Positions 6,339-31,991 of a DNA stretch of 31,991 nucleotides are shown here, piece by piece. The position numbers and the translations under genes were made by a program. How positions within the stretch are numbered: position 1 is the stretch's first letter; the number at the start of each line of letters is the position of its first letter. The notes beneath the pieces were generated by a model. That model worked only from the letters and a program-made list of their open reading frames with translations. It had not been told where the DNA came from and searched no databases. The DNA is from Acaryochloridaceae cyanobacterium VAR_48_metabat_390 (GTDB lineage Bacteria; Cyanobacteriota; Cyanobacteriia; Thermosynechococcales; Thermosynechococcaceae): the NCBI GenBank assembly GCA_031422435.1, contig JANPLU010000105.1, positions 1 through 31,991 of the forward strand. The letters are read 5' to 3'.

Positions 6339-7613
6339 CTAGCTAACGGTGACCAGTATCACTAAATCCTGCTGATCGAACGCACTTGAAGTTGGATCAG
6401 TCGCCCCTAATTCAAACAAAATAATGTACTGTGTGCCAGGGCTAGGCAGTTTTACTTTGTCGGAACTGTCCACATAACTGCTCATGAAGCCTTTGACAGA
6501 TGTGGAGCCATCAAAGCCCTTTACATCAGGCACCGGATCTCCATGCTTTAAGATTTTGACTTGAACTGGGCTAGCAACAGAATTGAAACCTGAAGTTCCA
6601 TTGGGGATAGATCCGCTACAGGTGTTGTTGAGATTGTTGAGCGTAGGCACAGAACCAGTGAAATCGAATATTGTCCCGGCAGGTTGGTTATTGAGAGGAA
6701 TGGTGGGCAATGCCAGTGCAGGATTAACGTTAGCGGTCGGCAAAGAAATTTTAGTGCCAGTGCCTGACGGTTTATAGCTAACGGTAAAAGCGGTATTCAT
6801 GGGAGTCGCCCCTGGCCCGCACTGAATAGCACTACCCAATACCTGAAAGCTCGTATTGCTGACGTCAAGGTTAGTAACCGTATTATCGGTATTGATTACA
6901 AAGGGTAGAGTGGTTGAGGTGTTGGTGGAACGAGCAAAAGCTTGAGATGAGGCCAGGTAAGGGGCAGTTTGCCCTAAGACTTTGGTGATGCGACCTTTGT
7001 TAAAAATCTGAGCAACTCTGTTGTTGGGATCAATACATGCATAAAATCCGGTAGCTCCGCTGGCGGGGGAAGCCGTCCAAGACGTTGGGCAAGTCACGCT
7101 GGTCGTTGCTGAACTATCGATCGCATCCACAAGGGGCTGATGAGTCCAGGTACTGGGCGTTGATTTATCGGCACCGTAAGCGCCTGTACTGGTGAAGGAT
7201 GGCCCCCATCTATAAATCACCTGCGGACCACGCCAAGCTGTATTAGATGTCGCTGTCGTTGCCACATAGTAAATGACCGGTTTTGTTAATCCCTCTACTC
7301 TCAGCCTGAGTACATCTTTCACGGTGGTTGTATCGACCTCTGATGAGGAGGGAGAAAATTCGCCGGGCTTAGCGTCTGAGTTAATTTGTGCAGATTGCCT
7401 AATTTCGGAAGCCATAAAGTCAAGCGATCGATTAAGCTCTACCCGCCGCTCGTTTTGTGAGCCACTGGTCTTACTGGAGGTAATCATGGTGGCGACTGCC
7501 CAACCCCCTATCCCTAACGATCCGATGGTGATAAATGCGGCAATCATTAACTCGGTAAGGGTAATGCCGCTCTGTTGAGAGTTGGGTAGCTTTTTAGGGA
7601 AGGGACGCATCAT
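6339..7613 (-). CDS. Minor type IV pilin, PilW-like, with large Ser/Thr-rich C-terminal region
   Basis: Prepilin cleavage motif G|ITLTELMIA (E5) followed by a hydrophobic helix; C-terminal FELG...FDQQDLVILV acidic motif. Confidence 0.8.
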   Translation of the reverse strand: MMRPFPKKLPNSQQSGITLTELMIAAFITIGSLGIGGWAVATMITSSKTSGSQNERRVELNRSLDFMASEIRQSAQINSDAKPGEFSPSSSEVDTTTVKDVLRLRVEGLTKPVIYYVATTATSNTAWRGPQVIYRWGPSFTSTGAYGADKSTPSTWTHQPLVDAIDSSATTSVTCPTSWTASPASGATGFYACIDPNNRVAQIFNKGRITKVLGQTAPYLASSQAFARSTNTSTTLPFVINTDNTVTNLDVSNTSFQVLGSAIQCGPGATPMNTAFTVSYKPSGTGTKISLPTANVNPALALPTIPLNNQPAGTIFDFTGSVPTLNNLNNTCSGSIPNGTSGFNSVASPVQVKILKHGDPVPDVKGFDGSTSVKGFMSSYVDSSDKVKLPSPGTQYIILFELGATDPTSSAFDQQDLVILVTVS

Positions 7614-7706
7614 GGCTCGTAGGCTTTAGGTAGGGTAATAATACGTTGCCGGTGGGTACAAAAGAGATTCAATTAATTACAATCAAATTTCTTTTTAGAA
7701 AATACT

Positions 7707-8297
7707 TTAAGAGATATTGGTACGACAGCTATTGACGACGGGTGCTGCTGGAGTAGCGCCCGTATAGGTACCGGATCGAACAATGCCAATACCGCTCGCA
7801 ATAACAATACAGCGCATCTTGCGACTAGCCGCACCGCTCGCCTGGTAAATGGTAATGATGCCCGTACCCCCGCTCATAGTAGGAATCGTACCTTTATAGG
7901 TAAAGTTAATGACTGCTGGAGTCCCCAGATTGGCGGTGCTAATGGAGATTCCTGAAGCATTATTATTGGGATTGCTATTAGGATCGGTACCCACTGTTGC
8001 CATCCCTAACTTTCTGAGATCACGCTCTCCTGAAGTGAGGCAGTTGGCCGGAGCGCTTGTAATGGTTACGCCAATAGTAAGGGTACAAGCCTGACTTTTC
8101 TTAATGGATTCTAACTGTGATTCTTTAATCGCACCTTCAACTTGCGCGGTGACGTCCTCAACTTTTTTGTTGTTGAGCCAGGTCAAAAAACTAGGGGTTG
8201 CAATCATCCCCAAGATGCCCATAACCACAATGGTAATTAGGCTTTCGATGAGGGTAAATCCGCGCTGAGATTTTTGTCGATAATGGTGAGGTGACAT
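7707..8297 (-). CDS. Minor type IV pilin, FimT/FimU-like
   Basis: RG|FTLIESLITIVVMGILGMIATPSF prepilin motif; four Cys; C-terminal RCIVI...GIVRSG. Confidence 0.88.
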   Translation of the reverse strand: MSPHHYRQKSQRGFTLIESLITIVVMGILGMIATPSFLTWLNNKKVEDVTAQVEGAIKESQLESIKKSQACTLTIGVTITSAPANCLTSGERDLRKLGMATVGTDPNSNPNNNASGISISTANLGTPAVINFTYKGTIPTMSGGTGIITIYQASGAASRKMRCIVIASGIGIVRSGTYTGATPAAPVVNSCRTNIS

Positions 8298-8339
8298 AGA
8301 ACGTAATTTCAGGCGAAAAGTTAGAAAGGTATTAAGAAA

Positions 8340-8870
8340 CTAGGGACACTGAAAAGCTTTGTCCGGAATAACTTCGGCGTACATTTGCGATAAAGATTGA
8401 GAGGCATTACTAGGGGAAGGAACGTTATAACTCACTTCCATCACAACATAGGGCGAAGCATTTTTAAGATTAATGGTGCGGTTGACGGTGTAAGGTCTGT
8501 TGCCCAGCGCGCTGGTTTTTGAGGTTGCTGTGGTGTTGGTTGTACTGGCGCTGGCTCCGGCAATAACGTCACGCAGTGCGTCTGCATAGCCCGCTGTGGC
8601 ACTTGTGGCACCACAAAGAGCTGTATTGGCTGGCAGTTGACTGGCTTGGTAGCGAATCATCTCAATATCTTGCTGAATCCAGGCTGTGGCTTCGCTGCGT
8701 TCTTGCGCTTTAACTTTTATAGCAGCGGAGGCGACCAAGGTCTGCATAGCCGCCGCCACAAACCCAAACAGGAGTAACATGCCTACCATCACTTCAACCA
8801 AGCTGAAGCCCTGATTCGTCTTAGGCTTTCTATCAAATCGAGTTAAAAAATGAAGAAGTTGGAGATTCAT
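8340..8870 (-). CDS. Minor type IV pilin, PilV-like
   Basis: QG|FSLVEVMVGMLLL prepilin motif; C-terminal YAEVIP...QCP typical of cyanobacterial PilV-like pilins. Confidence 0.85.
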   Translation of the reverse strand: MNLQLLHFLTRFDRKPKTNQGFSLVEVMVGMLLLFGFVAAAMQTLVASAAIKVKAQERSEATAWIQQDIEMIRYQASQLPANTALCGATSATAGYADALRDVIAGASASTTNTTATSKTSALGNRPYTVNRTINLKNASPYVVMEVSYNVPSPSNASQSLSQMYAEVIPDKAFQCP

Positions 8871-19198: not shown

Positions 19199-20095
19199 AT
19201 GGCAAACAGTCAATGGTGGGAGCTATGGGTATTAGCGGAACCAGCCTTAGATGAGCTGCTGTCTTGGGAGATTCAGTCGATGGGCTGTCAGGGCACTTCT
19301 AGCCAAATCAAGGACGGTCAGCTCCGTATTTGCGGGTATTTTGCTCAAAGTCAGGTTTCTGAGACGACACTGACTCAAATGGCAGATCGGCTCCGACTTT
19401 TGGCTCCGACGGCAAATTTAGGCAGTATTGAAGTGGGCTGGAATGTCATTCAAGAAGAGGACTGGGCCAGTAGCTGGAAAGATTATTGGCACCCCACGGA
19501 AGTGGGCGATCGCCTTCTCATCCACCCTGACTGGCTCCCTGTACCTATAACCGACCGAATTGTATTGCGACTGAACCCTGGAGTTGCCTTTGGCACAGGT
19601 GCCCACGCTACTACTCAGCTCTGTTTAGTGGCTCTAGAACAGCAGTTTGCAAAATCTACGGCATCCCCCTGTGTTGTTGCCGATATTGGCTGCGGCACCG
19701 GAATTTTGGCGATCGCCGCGCTTCAGTTTGGTGCAGGCCGCGCATTTGCCGTCGATACCGACCCCCTCGCGGTGCAGGCTGCCCAGGAGTGTCGAGATCT
19801 CAACGCCATAGAGCCGAGCCGTATGGTTGTAGAAGAAGGCAGCATTGAAACGGCGATCGCCTTGGCAAAAACGCCCGTAGATGGGTTCTGCTGCAATATT
19901 TTGGCTCATATTATTATTGAGCTGGTACCCCAGATGAAGCAGTTGGCGAAGCCGAAGGGCTGGGGCATTCTTAGCGGCATTTTACAAAAGCAGGTGCCGG
20001 ACGTGGTTGAAGCGTTGACGGCAAATGGTTGGAACGTAGAGGAACACTGGCAACAGGCCGACTGGGCTTGTTTAAAAATTATCTGTCCTGATTAG
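19199..20095 (+). CDS. prmA: Ribosomal protein L11 methyltransferase
   Basis: EDWASSWKDYWHP, PGVAFGTGAHATT, DIGCGTGILAI, NILA and LSGIL motifs. Confidence 0.96.
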   Translation: MANSQWWELWVLAEPALDELLSWEIQSMGCQGTSSQIKDGQLRICGYFAQSQVSETTLTQMADRLRLLAPTANLGSIEVGWNVIQEEDWASSWKDYWHPTEVGDRLLIHPDWLPVPITDRIVLRLNPGVAFGTGAHATTQLCLVALEQQFAKSTASPCVVADIGCGTGILAIAALQFGAGRAFAVDTDPLAVQAAQECRDLNAIEPSRMVVEEGSIETAIALAKTPVDGFCCNILAHIIIELVPQMKQLAKPKGWGILSGILQKQVPDVVEALTANGWNVEEHWQQADWACLKIICPD

Positions 20096-20109
20096 CTTTG
20101 ATTAATCTA

Positions 20110-20139
20110 GGGTAGCGACCTCGGGTCAGATCGCCACCT
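20110..20139. terminator. Hairpin between prmA and the riboswitch; possible terminator for either direction
   Basis: Minus strand GGTGGCGATCT-GACCCG-AGGTCGCTACC pairs fully using G-U pairs, so it is more stable on the minus-strand RNA; weak U tract. Confidence 0.5.
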
Positions 20140-20153
20140 ACATCAATAAGGAA

Positions 20154-20255
20154 AGTCCCTTCGGCACTAGCAGCATCCATACCCACAATGCTTTTTGGCT
20201 TTAGGCCTGCTAATTTGCGCCTTGTCCTTTCGGACAAGTAGCCGTTTCGGGGACT
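20154..20255 (-). ncRNA. c-di-GMP-I (GEMM) riboswitch aptamer
   Basis: Minus strand: P1 AGTCCC/GGGACT; GGC; P2 CTTGTCC-GAAA-GGACAAG; junction GCGCAAA; P3 TTAGCAG/CTGCTAG with tetraloop receptor CCTAAA...TATGG; 3' TGCCGAA. By-eye alignment to Vc2 gives G20/A47/C92. Confidence 0.85.
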
Positions 20256-20976
20256 ACGTGGGCTGTGCGGGGGGTATGACAGCCCAATCAATGTATTCAT
20301 ATAAACATATTTGTGAAGGGGGGCTAAAGCGAGAATTTACGGAACTTGAATTAAATTAATTTGTTTCGCCTCAGTAGTCTCACATCTGTAAATATACGGA
20401 TATTTCGGACAAAACCTCTAAGCGTTCAACGCTAGTGCACAAGACAGGAGGTAAAAGAGCCACCCTATGAAGGTTTCAATGATGTCAGGCTTCCATGATA
20501 TCGAATCAGGATTTCATGACACACTCAGCATTATCTACTCACTGTCTGAGAGTTCATCTCCCCGCAAGCCTCGAATGCCCCAATTGATTTTGGGTGTTTC
20601 AATGAGCGTAGTCTCTAAATCTAGAGGGAAATTTTAAGTTCTAGCTCAAATCGCTCAAACAGCAACCGAATGAGCTGCCGTTTGGTTGTGGCGGTGCGGC
20701 CTTCAAATATCAAAATTTCTAAGATGGTGTAGTTTTCAGTGCGATCGCCAGGATAGATAAATGTCTCTGGTTCTATAGAGAGTCGTATCGGTGTCTTATC
20801 ACAGATTTTGGGGTTGATGTTTTCCTCTACGAAGATTCCATAGCATCACAGGATTATCCTGACTTCAGCCATTGAGCCGCTGAGCGCGCACTGTTTCCTC
20901 GGCTGCTAGATAGGTTAAGACCCGCTACAATTAGGGATATAGCAAAATGTAAAGAAACATTGCGTCTTGCGGCTTT

Positions 20977-22463
20977 ATGAATCCCCTCTCTTCCAATTCA
21001 ATGTTACGAGCTGTTCCCTTAAAGAGTCAGATGGCGGCGAATGCGCAGCATCCAGCATCTGCTCTTCAGGTTGATAACACTCTTCTAGAAGCACTGACCG
21101 CAGGTGGCTCTGACCCCCAGCGGTTTGATTGGGCTGAGGCATGGTACCCCATTTACCTGGTTGAAGATTTAGACCCCAGCAAGCCGACGCCTTTCACGCT
21201 TTTGGATCAGGATTTAGTGATTTGGTGGGAGCCTACGCTCCAACATTGGCGAGTCGTAGAAGACAAATGCCCTCATCGGCTGGCGCGGCTGTCTGAAGGT
21301 CGTATTTCTGAATCAGGTCATTTGGAATGTCCCTATCATGGCTGGGCATTTTCTGGTAGTGGACAGTGTGAAAGGATTCCGCAGTTGCCGGAGAACTCCC
21401 AAGCGCTACAGTCGCCGAGAGCCTGTATCCAATCCTTGCCCACAGCTATCCACCAAGGGCTACTTTTTGTCTATCCTGGCAAGTCTGAGAATGCTCACAA
21501 AACCGCAGTTCCTATCATTGAGCCAATAGAAGCAGATCCTGAGAAGTGGGTCTGCCTCAACATTGTCCGCGATCTTCCCTACGATGCCCTCACGCTGCTT
21601 GAGAACGTATTAGATGCCAGCCATGTGCCCTACACCCACCATCGCACCGTGGGCAACCGTGCCAATGCTGCCCCCGTATCGCTAGAGATGCTTGAGGCCA
21701 GTAAACAAGGATTCACAGGCAAATGGGAGGAAGGGCCACGACGGGGAACCCTTGGTCAGCAAGACACGCGGTTTATTGCGCCAAATTTGATGTGGCATGA
21801 TTTAACCTCCAAACAATTTGGCAGGACGCTGACGGTTGTTATGCGGTTCCCATTCGCAAGGGCGAGTGTCGATTAATTGCACGGTTTCCGTTTAAGTTTT
21901 CATCGCCGTGGCCAGGTTTGTTTATTCGGCTTACGCCCACTTGGTATTCTCACATTGGGCAAAATGCCATCCTAGAAGACGACCAGATTTTTCTGCACCA
22001 TCAAGAACGCGCTTTGGCGGCAGCAGGGGGTAGTCAGCGCCTTTCTAAAGCGTTCTACTTACCCACCACCGCAGACTTATTTGTATCTAAGCTCCATCAG
22101 TGGCTAAAAGACTATCAGGCCGATCCGTTTGCTGGGCAGTCTCTTCCTGCGGCAGTGCGGACAAAGGCTGAGCTACTGGATCGCTATCATTCCCATACAG
22201 TTCACTGCGCAAGCTGTAGTGGGGCACTCGCCAATCTAAAGCGAGTGCGGTTAAGCGTGGCGGTAATGGGGGCGATCGCCTGGGTCACAACGCCTCTTCT
22301 AATGGCATTAGGGCAAACGGTACCTTTAGGATTCACCGCAGGGATGGGGCTATTTGCATTAGTTAGCCTTGGTGGTTGGGCATTATTGAAGCGCCTTGAG
22401 CGACGGTTTTATGAAGGTCGTGAAATCCCGCCTCGCAATCTTCCTGAAAAACTTAAAAAGTAA
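20977..22463 (+). pseudogene. Rieske 2Fe-2S oxygenase, pheophorbide a oxygenase (PaO)-like, split by a 1-nt frameshift at ~21840
   Basis: CPHR...CPYHGW Rieske motif, ENVLDASHVPYTHH iron site, EDD, HTVHCASC and C-terminal TM pair. Adding one T at GTTGTT^ATGCG restores LTVVYAVPIRKGECRLIARFPFKF and joins the two ORFs. Confidence 0.85.
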
Positions 22464-28790: not shown

Positions 28791-31700
28791 CTACCAAACC
28801 AGGTGGGATGTAATCAGAGCTTTTGCAGCTTTGTAATTTAAGGGTTTAGAGAAAAAATACCCCTGACCATATTCACAGCCCAGTCGTCTGAGTTGAGCCA
28901 GCTGAGATGCTGTTTCGATGCCTTCCGCCACAACCTCCATATTAAGGGTATGAGATAGCGTCAAAATCGCCTGAACGATTTCGGCATTCTCGCCTGCTTG
29001 CCCCATGGCGTTTACAAAAGAACGATCAATTTTAAGGGTGTCGATGGGGAACTGATGCAGGCGACTGAGAGAAGAGTATCCGGTGCCAAAATCGTCAATA
29101 CAGAGCTGTACGCCCAGAGACTTAAGTTTCTGAAGCAGGGTTGCAGCGTAATCGGAATGCTCCATAATTTCGCTCTCGGTAATTTCCAATTTAAGCCGAT
29201 CAGGAGCCAATCCGGTTTGCTGTAAAACTTGGCTGATCTGCTGAATGAGGTTGGGCTGAGAGAGAAGCCTACTGGAAAGATTGACGTTGATGCTCAAACA
29301 CTGATGGGCTGGACACTGCATCTGCCACTTCCGAAGCTGTTGGCAGGCCGTCCACATTACCCACTGATCTATTTGGATAATTAAGCCAGTTTCTTCCGCT
29401 ACGGGCATAAACTCAGCCGGAGAAATGAGACCTCTGTCTGGATGCAGCCAGCGCACCAGCGCCTCAAACCCAGTAACACACCCTGTGGATAGAGAAATAA
29501 TGGGTTGGTAAAACACCCGTAGCTCATGGCGTGTGATGGCCCAGCGGAGATCAGTTTCTAGCTTCAGCAGAGCAACCGCTTGCTCAAACATCTCTGCATT
29601 GAAGATCGCATAACGGTTTTTGCCGAGGGCTTTGGCTCGGTACAGGGCTGTATCGGCATTTCGCAGTAGGACTTCTGCTGGGTCAGCACTCGCCTGATTG
29701 AGAACGATGCCAATACTGCTCGTAATGAAAACCTCCTGTTCTTTGAGGTAAAGAGGTGCACGCAGGGACTGCTGAATTCGCTCAGCGATGCCAACGACGT
29801 CTTCAGGGTTTTGAATGGAATTGAGCAGCACTGTAAATTCATCGCCCCCTAAACGGGCAACTGTATCGCCAGGACGGAGGCAGGCTTGGAGGCGCTGGGC
29901 GATCGCCACCAAAAGTTGGTCCCCCACTAAATGACCCAGACTATCGTTGATGACCTTGAAGCGATCCAGATCTAGAAAGAGAACTGCAAACTGCTCATGA
30001 GGAGAGCGCTGGAGGCGATCTAGGGTTTGCTGAAGCCGATCCATAAACAGAAGTCGATTAGGTAATCCCGTCAAGGCATCATGAAAAGCATCATGAATTA
30101 ACTGCTCTTCAATACGCTTGCGATCTGAAATATCAACCACCTGATCAAGGGTGTGAAGCGGATTGCCATCGGCATCGCGGATTAGCGTTGACTGGAGCAG
30201 CGCATTAACAATGTGGCCATCTTTGGCAAGATACCGCTTTTCAATCTGATAGTAGGACAGTTCACCTCGGAGTAGCTTTTGAGTGTAAATCAGATCGGCT
30301 GCGAGGTCATCGGCATGGGTGATATCTGCAAAAGTGAGGTTGACTAGCTCAGTGGAGGTGTACCCTAACGCACGGCAAAAAGCCTGATTCACCTTTAGAA
30401 AACGTCCATCTAAGGTGTTGAGCGCCATGCCAATGGGAGCAAGCTCAAAGATGATACGAAAAAGTGCTTCACTCTTTTGAAGATCTTCTTCAGCCTTTTT
30501 ACTCTTTGTGATATCGGTGGCAATGCCATCCAAGCGAATTGACCTGCCGCTACTATCGAAGATCACCCGACCACGATCTCTAAGCCATCGCACCTGTCCA
30601 TTGGGTTGAATAATTCGATACTCTAAATCTTTACTCCCGTTCTCTAAGGTAGCCTGCAACTCGGTTCGCACTCGGTCTTGATCATCAGGGTGAACGGTCT
30701 CCAGCCAAAGGTTGGGGTTGTCGAAAAACTCTGCAACTGAACGACCATAGACCTTCTCAGCGGCGGGGTTTAGATAGTAAATATGAGAACCATCAATGGA
30801 GGTAGACCACACGATATCTTCGAGGTCTTTGAGAATGCTGCTCAGCCGATGCTCACTTTCTTGGAGTGCAGCCTCAACCCGTTTGCGGGCTGTGATGTCG
30901 GTAATCATGCCTAACGCTCCGGCATAATTCCTCTGGTTATCAAAAAACGGAGCCGTTGAGACAATGGCCCAGAGGTCACTCCCATTCTTACGGCGAAACT
31001 TGAAGTCGTGGGCTTCGCTGATGCCTGCATGGCGGTGCTCTAAACCGATGTTGGCGATCGCAATCCCTTCTTCATCCATAAAAGAGAACAGGGTTTCGCC
31101 CATCATTTCATCAATGGAGTAGCCCAGCATAGCGGCCATTTGGGAGTTGACAAATCTAGTTTGATTCTCTTGGTCTAGCACCCAAATTCCTTCGACGGCG
31201 GTTTCAACAATCCGGCGATACTGTTCTTCCTGTTGACGGAGGGCTTCTTCTGCTTGGATGCGCTGGGTAATATCGGTTTGAATTCCGACAAAGTGGGTGA
31301 GATCCCCTTTCTCGTCAAATACGGGCGCAACATACAAATCGTTCCAGAAGAGGGTGCCGTCTTTACGGTAGTTGCGCAGAGTAACGTGGCATTCTTGATG
31401 GTTTTCTAAAGCCGCTCGTAGTTCCGGAAGAGCAGCTTGCCCTGTATCTGTGCCCTGTAAAAACCGACAGTTCCGCCCTATCACTTCAGCATTGGTATAG
31501 CCCGTCATTGTCTCAAAGGCTGGGTTGACATAGATGATGGGGTTATCGAGTTGGTGGGCGTCCGTCAAAACAATGCCGTTACTGCTGGCGGCGATCGCCC
31601 GCTCCATCAGGCGCAGTTGAGATTGCGCCTGTTTTTGCTCAATGGCTGTGGCTAAGAAATTGGCGATTGCCTGGAGAAAATACACATCCTCCTGGGTAAA

Positions 31701-31991
31701 GGCCTGAGGCGACGTCGTATAGCCCCATAGTACGCCAAAGGGCTGTTCTTGCCCTGGAATAACCACATTGATGCTGCTCACCACTCGATGATTATGGAGT
31801 AGGGGTGGCCCGCCGAAGTGTGGGTCAATGCGAAAGTCTTCTACAATCACGGGGGTTTGAGTCTGGAGGGTGTAGCCAATTTGAGAATTGTGCTGGCTGC
31901 TCACCCGTGCTGTACCCACGAGACCGTGATTCCAACCCACCCCCGCCTTGAGCTGTAGGGCATTTCCCCCTGGTAGTCGTTCTAAAATGGC
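28791..31991 (-). CDS. GAF-LOV-PAS-PAS-PAS-GGDEF-EAL protein (diguanylate cyclase/phosphodiesterase), 5' end outside the window
   Basis: Frame open to the window edge; [12 protein letters not shown] signature; three further PAS/PAC repeats; RPGD I-site plus [20 protein letters not shown] and EGIE. Confidence 0.95.

Follow-up and report, generated by a model that had tools for sequence, protein, structure and literature searches.

The window, i.e., the whole stretch of 31,991 nt analysed here (contig JANPLU010000105.1 of an Acaryochloridaceae cyanobacterium), carries a c-di-GMP-I riboswitch aptamer on the minus strand next to the 3′ end of prmA. An earlier note, made from the letters of the sequence, had described a complete GEMM-type aptamer at this place and proposed a covariance-model search against Rfam. 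This search (cmscan) confirmed the assignment: the RF01051 model was matched over its full length at 20253->20160 (minus strand) with 48.2 bits against a gathering score of 35 (E 1.2e-6), and this was the sole gathering-level Rfam match in the window. The aptamer span of 20255->20154 in the note is exact, with P1 pairing 20255-20250 with 20159-20154, and the convergent prmA indeed ends at 20095 on the plus strand. The features of the locus are as follows.

19199..20095, plus strand: prmA (TIGR00406, 224.9 bits, cut-off 183.15), a convergent neighbour, not part of the RNA
20101..20147, minus strand: 3′ hairpin, from folding energy, specific to the prmA locus
20154..20159, minus strand: 3′ strand of P1, followed by a pyrimidine/U-rich tract at 20153-20145
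20160..20253, minus strand: c-di-GMP-I aptamer core (RF01051) with GAAA tetraloop and receptor
20164, 20216 and 20243, minus strand: pocket nucleotides of the window copy, equivalent to C92, A47 and G20, respectively
20250..20255, minus strand: 5′ strand of P1, pairing with 20159-20154
20259..20286, minus strand: 5′ hairpin H0, from the fold, with an 8-bp stem and a 12-nt loop bearing a run of six C at 20274-20269
20290..20317, minus strand: candidate sigma70-type promoter TTCACA-16-TACATT, from a pattern scan
20386..20399, no strand assigned: imperfect palindrome CCGTA-N4-TAC(A/G)G, a candidate operator, with a second half-site at 20334-20344

The window copy bears all the elements of the aptamer fold, namely P2 with a GNRA tetraloop, P3 with the receptor, and a three-way junction closed by P1; the first A that is usual in the internal loop of P2 is replaced by U. 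The hairpin noticed earlier upstream of the aptamer does exist at 20286-20259, while its C6 loop and its membership in the RNA had been missed, as had the promoter-like site at 20317-20290. The latter is weak when taken alone (3 sites found vs. 2.1 expected); the transcription start is predicted near 20284-20288. The core letters of the palindrome are invariant in all six orthologues of the prmA locus, and a palindrome of this type lies upstream of 9/73 members of the RNA family described below vs. 1/266 control windows; we infer that it is a transcription-factor site or operator. The host genome contains eight perfect copies of CCGTA-N4-TACGG, and the copies at loci L002, L021 and L177 are placed at about −55.

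On the 3′ side, the hairpin reported in the note is stabilised by G-U pairs in the direction of the aptamer, as claimed, and is longer than was stated (20147-20101). The minus strand folds here with −23.6 kcal/mol (z −5.7), the plus strand with −10.7 kcal/mol (z −1.1). In the six orthologues of the prmA locus the stem is kept and the loop is variable, and prmA itself is kept as the neighbour in six genomes. The hairpin is likely the end of a long form of the RNA and/or a terminator common with prmA. An ATG-TAG follows the aptamer at 20143-20138, just as described. The alternative GTAGTC/GGCTAC stem, which had been proposed to disrupt P1, is present in the sequence at 20257-20238, one base away from the coordinates given for it, but it does not hold as a conserved switch: it is absent from the MFE fold and occurs in only 2/74 family members, both of which are prmA-locus copies. 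The note had also missed a 73-codon ORF that runs across the element (20300->20079, minus strand). We rejected this ORF as a coding gene: its six orthologues comprise 73, 82+, 59, 77 and 44 codons and one without an ATG, the aptamer lengths fall in all three frames, and it has no NCBIfam match.

Elsewhere in the window, two successive ORFs occupy positions 20977-22463, one of 299 aa for a Rieske oxygenase and one of 181 aa which, by eye, resembles the C-terminal part of the former; the pair looks like a single gene with a frameshift near 21840, due to a sequence error or in a pseudogene. A large PAS/LOV-like GGDEF-EAL protein (28791-31991, minus strand; best match the Tlr1612 family, below the cut-off) and a cluster of pilin-like genes (6339-8870, minus strand) lie 8-11 kb from the RNA, which is proximity alone.

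The comparison with relatives revealed a conserved RNA gene, ~135-185 nt long, in which the aptamer makes up the 3′ half; the gene is composed of a −10 box, a 5′ hairpin with a C5-8 loop, a P1 of 6 bp, the aptamer, and a U-rich tail. A custom covariance model was built from 74 non-redundant members. Covariation was counted on a model-fitted alignment of 78 matches, where the fitting favours the model and kin are not independent: 93.7% of cells are paired, and changes on both sides were seen in 31 of the 34 pairs. Values this high were reached by none of 500 shuffles, and in slid controls 35-44% of cells are paired. In H0, both-sided (compensatory) changes affect 7/7 pairs; in P1, 6/6 pairs, with 98.7% of cells paired, and the P1 pattern was also found on an unfitted MAFFT alignment. 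An alignment-free listing showed several different stem sequences around the C-run, such that the stem of H0 varies freely and the loop keeps its C's. The run measures 5-8 nt in all 74 members, though C4 or more was a selection criterion. Among RF01051 hits of the host's family, which were not selected for the hairpin (72 hits, 71 retrieved, 69 with enough upstream sequence), H0 was detected in 63/69 by an automatic test and in five more by eye; the hit that lacks it, L004 (80.8 bits), is a conventional riboswitch with a same-strand ORF 47 nt downstream. In 61/74 members vs. 70/367 control windows, H0 is preceded by a TANNNT box that ends 3-11 nt upstream, and at least five U within 8 nt stand at the end of P1 in 51/74. 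The aptamer is one module of a covarying two-module RNA gene with its own −10 box, independent of neighbouring genes.

Some traits are confined to parts of the family. A 3′ tail motif A(A/C)YYRAAU(A/C), a possible nuclease or protein site, is found at a fixed distance of ~13-16 nt after P1 in 21/74 members vs. 0/218 control windows; it occurs in both lineages that carry the RNA (L007, L036, L050, L151 and others) and is absent from the window copy. Pairing of the H0 loop with its own aptamer averages −9.63 kcal/mol vs. −9.26 kcal/mol for permuted combinations (19/2000); we rejected it as a family-wide feature, since one subgroup drives the signal and the members are not independent. Only in one loop subgroup is the pairing of the loop with P3 strong.

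As to the ligand, the Vc2 numbers G20, A47 and C92 were transferred to the Rfam consensus by a mapping that we take to be correct. The GEMM-Ib riboswitch for 3′3′-cGAMP has an A at position 20. This mark is absent from our family, where G stands at this position in 74/74 members; the A47 junction keeps its three A's without exception, and C92 is retained in 71/74. Given the roles of these three nucleotides in the pocket, as described in the accessible part of PMC5888326, the ligand of the window copy is predicted from its sequence to be c-di-GMP rather than cGAMP. Alternatively, the fold could be kept for another ligand or for none, the product being a structural or protein-binding RNA. The U for the first A of the P2 internal loop in the window copy is in line with that, as are the U found at the C92 position in 3/74 members and the 45-nt insertions in P2 of some copies; the near-perfect retention of G20, A47 and C92 and the presence of about 19 GGDEF/EAL genes in the host genome make this very unlikely. 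The members with U at the C92 equivalent are L048, L169 and L178 (also L157), where affinity or ligand may have been altered among paralogues; the insertions of ~45 nt form hairpins in the 5′ strand of P2 (L183, L184, L186).

We then consider where the RNA occurs. In the host's family, RF01051 is matched in 21 of 24 further genomes; outside this family, 0/16 genomes gave a match. With the custom model, 46/48 genomes of the host's family gave 1-12 matches each, counts that include a few weak matches to partial or ordinary aptamers; the two genomes without a match are 82% and 90% complete. The model matched in 5/5 genomes reached through named loci, in 0/148 genomes of other families in a sample of the phylum, and in 20/151 genomes of a second, class-wide sample without family labels. 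Some copies that it found had been missed by the Rfam model (G016, G024). A pattern scan of GTDB that required CCCC gave at least 118 stretches; the matches listed, from which a few ordinary riboswitches of non-cyanobacterial origin that lack the hairpin were left out, belong mostly to Thermosynechococcaceae, Acaryochloris, Altericista, Thermosynechococcus, Pseudanabaena and Tumidithrix. The RNA is kept in two cyanobacterial lineages, the host's family and Pseudanabaena/Tumidithrix. One contig labelled Rhizobium (L071) also carries a typical member and is probably a mis-binned cyanobacterial contig.

Many genomes have a single copy; the host genome has three, all with a CCCCCC-loop 5′ hairpin and the longer P1. 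Tandem copies 300-520 nt apart were observed on G020:C117, G194:C5 and G196:C103, and one copy is plasmid-borne (NZ_CP064924.1:151162-151305). Several copies at unrelated sites, one of them on a plasmid, would suit a functionless small mobile repeat or a relic of a lost gene, the latter having been among the suggestions of the note. We regard this reading as extremely improbable and largely refuted: compensatory changes are found in all helices, 46/48 genomes of the host's family have the RNA, its positions are conserved within genera, the promoter box is kept, and a search of viral contigs gave 0 matches.

To describe the downstream context, we took 112 elements, removed four non-cyanobacterial ones, and scored 83 of the 108 left, 25 being without a scoreable downstream gene; ORFs were called mechanically. 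A convergent gene follows in 59/83 cases and a same-strand one in 24/83, of which 18 lie within 300 nt. These neighbours form 49 groups, 29 convergent and 20 same-strand, mostly housekeeping. Among the 20 same-strand groups, eight are without a Pfam hit, and the others, which include EamA, SMC-like ATPase, IGPS, peptide deformylase, cytochrome b and a glycosyltransferase, are unrelated in function. Within genera, both neighbours and positions are conserved. In the host genome, the genes opposite the three copies are prmA, a PhoH-like and a LysR gene, all convergent, and a same-strand ORF of at least 70 aa directly downstream was found for 0/3 of them. Of ordinary GEMM motifs, 297/309 are in a 5′ position relative to a gene, according to the accessible text of PMC1950547. 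The survey of cyanobacterial homologues that the note had recommended thus revealed no consistent downstream gene. A shared small ORF was sought as well and rejected: 58 ATG ORFs of 10-70 aa are present downstream in 38/74 members, and by eye none is common beyond close kin.

Furthermore, no conserved expression platform competing with the aptamer was found among the alternative stem, anti-P1 hairpins and terminators examined: anti-P1 hairpins reach −2.40 kcal/mol vs. −2.27 kcal/mol for shuffled tails, and terminator-like hairpins are not enriched family-wide (16/73 vs. 30/138 controls). The conserved structure, the varying neighbours and the three host copies facing different convergent genes argue against two proposals of the note, namely a switch for transcription antisense to prmA as the general function (49 neighbour groups; the two paralogues face the PhoH-like and LysR genes) and a relic of a deleted gene (compensatory changes across two lineages; no shared gene or small ORF seen downstream).

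A broader cis reading is a riboswitch-gated promoter cassette, similar to an actuaton (a concept put forward in PMC6596454, as far as its accessible text goes), with read-through into downstream sequence in sense or antisense; at the present locus this would be antisense into prmA. The U-rich tract after P1 (51/74), the same-strand ORFs within 300 nt (18/83) and the neighbours kept within genera, e.g., prmA in six genomes, fit such a cassette, as does one RNA contig of Acaryochloris marina that continues into the downstream gene (see below). Nevertheless, we consider it unlikely in view of the 49 unrelated and mostly housekeeping neighbour groups, the strong hairpin between the aptamer and prmA, and the lack of a conserved switchable terminator; the C-loop would also be left unexplained.

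Expression data come from A. marina MBIC11017 (NC_009925.1), where a copy of the RNA at 1721643->1721508 contains AM1_NC123. In the accessible part of PMC5295598 (Table S3), AM1_NC123 is an unannotated transcript at 1721537-1721635 with expression values of 566/592/260 and no strand assignment, and a separate start is annotated for the following gene at 1721105, at a distance of 430 nt. The second A. marina copy is absent from the differential-expression table of that study, in so far as the table is accessible; sigF and a small hypothetical gene precede it in the same orientation (4797608-4799515; L124, L223).

Four RNA runs (X6-X9) were inspected at the A. marina locus as contigs only, which give no strand, ends or level; here the element occupies 1442-1577. 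Run X6 shows an island, 1455-1648, that overlaps the element and is possibly not independent of the published data. In X9, a biofilm metatranscriptome, a contig from a relative covers the element from adapter to adapter (1557 and about 1422), which is weak evidence. The X7 contig extends without a break from within the aptamer to the gene beyond, so there may be read-through into that gene; X7 leaves the 5′ part of the element uncovered and X8 all of it, gaps that carry no information. The evidence from these runs is weak and mixed.

Short structured RNAs are under-sampled by standard RNA-seq. The level of the transcript bears on another explanation, in which the RNA is a reservoir, or sponge, that buffers or localises c-di-GMP and the C-loop serves as a protein handle or stability element. 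A free-standing gene with an intact pocket is just what such a reservoir would need, up to 12 copies and tandem copies would raise its capacity, and a similar role has been proposed for the Bdellovibrio merRNA (PMC3627812, accessible part). At the same time, a sponge does not need a conserved C-run, and the A. marina copy, at 566 units vs. 8.9 million for tmRNA, is far below the top-50 list (PMC5295598, as available), whereas merRNA exceeds tmRNA, a comparison drawn from one organism and a library biased against short RNA. We hold the reservoir to be possible, at well under even odds.

Taken together, the conservation, the covariation, the own −10 box, the absence of a consistent downstream gene and the A. 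marina transcript support the idea, already raised by the note, of a stand-alone c-di-GMP-binding RNA, to which we assign a probability of about 0.85. The conserved C-rich loop, not recognised earlier, favours a function in trans, the loop being a candidate seed or protein handle. A more specific form, a trans regulator with its own promoter, encoded by a stand-alone gene and acting through a gated C-loop, we would put at an even chance. In this regulator, the binding of c-di-GMP would close and lock P1 at the 3′ end of the RNA; the closed P1 may protect it from 3′ trimming or fix its 3′ end at the U-rich tract, such that the amount or form of the RNA would track c-di-GMP. The exposed C-loop would act in trans by pairing with single-stranded G-rich stretches, of which ribosome-binding regions are the most likely, and so alter how target mRNAs are translated or decay. 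For the subgroup to which the window copy belongs, the loop can also pair with the GGGUAUG strand of the aptamer, and ligand-bound folding would free it.

The search for targets of this regulator gave mixed results. The genome-wide target test found none, which fits the reservoir as well. In the host genome, G5 runs in the 20 nt before the start occur in 7/62 receiver-domain genes vs. 24/3088 others (p 1.5e-6), this test being post hoc and one among several. In the controls, no signal was seen in the flanking zones, Shine-Dalgarno motifs were 1.3-fold, and C5 runs gave none. The G5-bearing receiver genes include a CheA (Hpt, CheW and receiver domains) from a PilH-I-J-L-like operon and a PatA-like regulator with DUF4388; the Pil and PatA names of these chemosensory genes are our presumption. 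The CheA orthologue has at least G5 in 15/30 scored carriers of the RNA vs. 1/17 non-carriers, a count from which two carriers without a start in reach and four further carriers and four non-carriers were left out, and the PatA-like orthologue has G5 in 8/8 members of the genus (by eye). One genome, G022, has G5 at both the CheA and PatA-like genes, yet no RNA was found in it. Receiver genes in other genomes, covered for genes starting within the 30 best loci per genome, had G5 in 0/81 cases in three carriers (G208, G016, G209) vs. 2/81 in three non-carriers (G040, G086, G365). The enrichment is thus not reproduced in the other carriers, and we set it aside as a general target signature. At the GGDEF/EAL genes of the host genome, G5 runs were found in 0/19 cases. 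The G-runs may simply be strong Shine-Dalgarno sites, perhaps a habit of the lineage. We consider it a tentative and rather doubtful proposal that the aptamer of a dedicated two-module riboregulator directly gates the C-loop, which would base-pair in trans with G-rich ribosome-binding sites at chemosensory/pilus genes (PilL-like CheA, PatA-like regulator).

Both a gene-less riboswitch RNA and a C-loop sRNA have precedents, and they help to place the family. With the ordinary c-di-GMP-I riboswitch (RF01051) it shares the aptamer fold, the tetraloop and receptor, and G20/A47/C92; beyond it, this RNA adds the 5′ C-loop hairpin and its own −10 box and has no conserved expression platform. A same-strand gene follows in 24/83 cases here, the genes being unrelated, vs. 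the 5′ placement of nearly all GEMM motifs surveyed in the accessible text of PMC1950547. This RNA resembles merRNA of Bdellovibrio in being non-coding, in containing a c-di-GMP riboswitch and in lacking a conserved ORF downstream; merRNA, as far as PMC3627812 is accessible, is 445 nt long, massively expressed, not found outside Bdellovibrio, and only speculatively a sponge, whereas the present RNA measures ~135-185 nt, is often multicopy, has a conserved C-loop, and is moderately expressed in one data set. In the P1-Vc2 sRNAs of Vibrio cholerae, a c-di-GMP-I aptamer also occupies the 3′ end of a small RNA and stabilises it (bioRxiv 10.1101/617340, accessible part), and the ligand-dependent closing of P1 proposed above is borrowed from this model; Vc2 at the same time switches tfoY in cis, the sRNAs are fragments of the leader, and the accessible text of that preprint does not describe a conserved 5′ effector hairpin. 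The actinobacterial 6C sRNA has C-rich hairpin loops that can bind G-rich mRNA sites without chaperones such as Hfq or ProQ (PMC6486639, accessible part), though it bears two or more such loops and lacks an aptamer. This is a functional analogy, not homology: no Rfam match to 6C was found in the window down to E 10.

A 2023 review citing Romling 2013 states that no c-di-GMP riboswitches have been identified in cyanobacteria (PMC10124867, accessible part). A C-loop aptamer family was not found described in titles and abstracts, a coverage that takes in few subscription papers. Neither the C-loop module nor a lineage-wide, multicopy family of this kind in cyanobacteria appears to have been described; the supplements of Sudarsan 2008 or Romling 2013, or the Rfam full alignment, may list some copies as ordinary riboswitches.

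Gene-less riboswitch RNAs have been known as single cases only. Here, we describe a lineage-wide family with a second conserved module, which makes the choice between a sponge and a trans regulator directly testable. The effector of the c-di-GMP-dependent reversal of phototaxis in Thermosynechococcus vulcanus is given as unknown in the same review (PMC10124867, accessible part). If the doubtful proposal of a two-module riboregulator of chemosensory/pilus genes is true, c-di-GMP would have an RNA effector in cyanobacteria, which would also be a candidate effector of phototaxis reversal in Thermosynechococcus.
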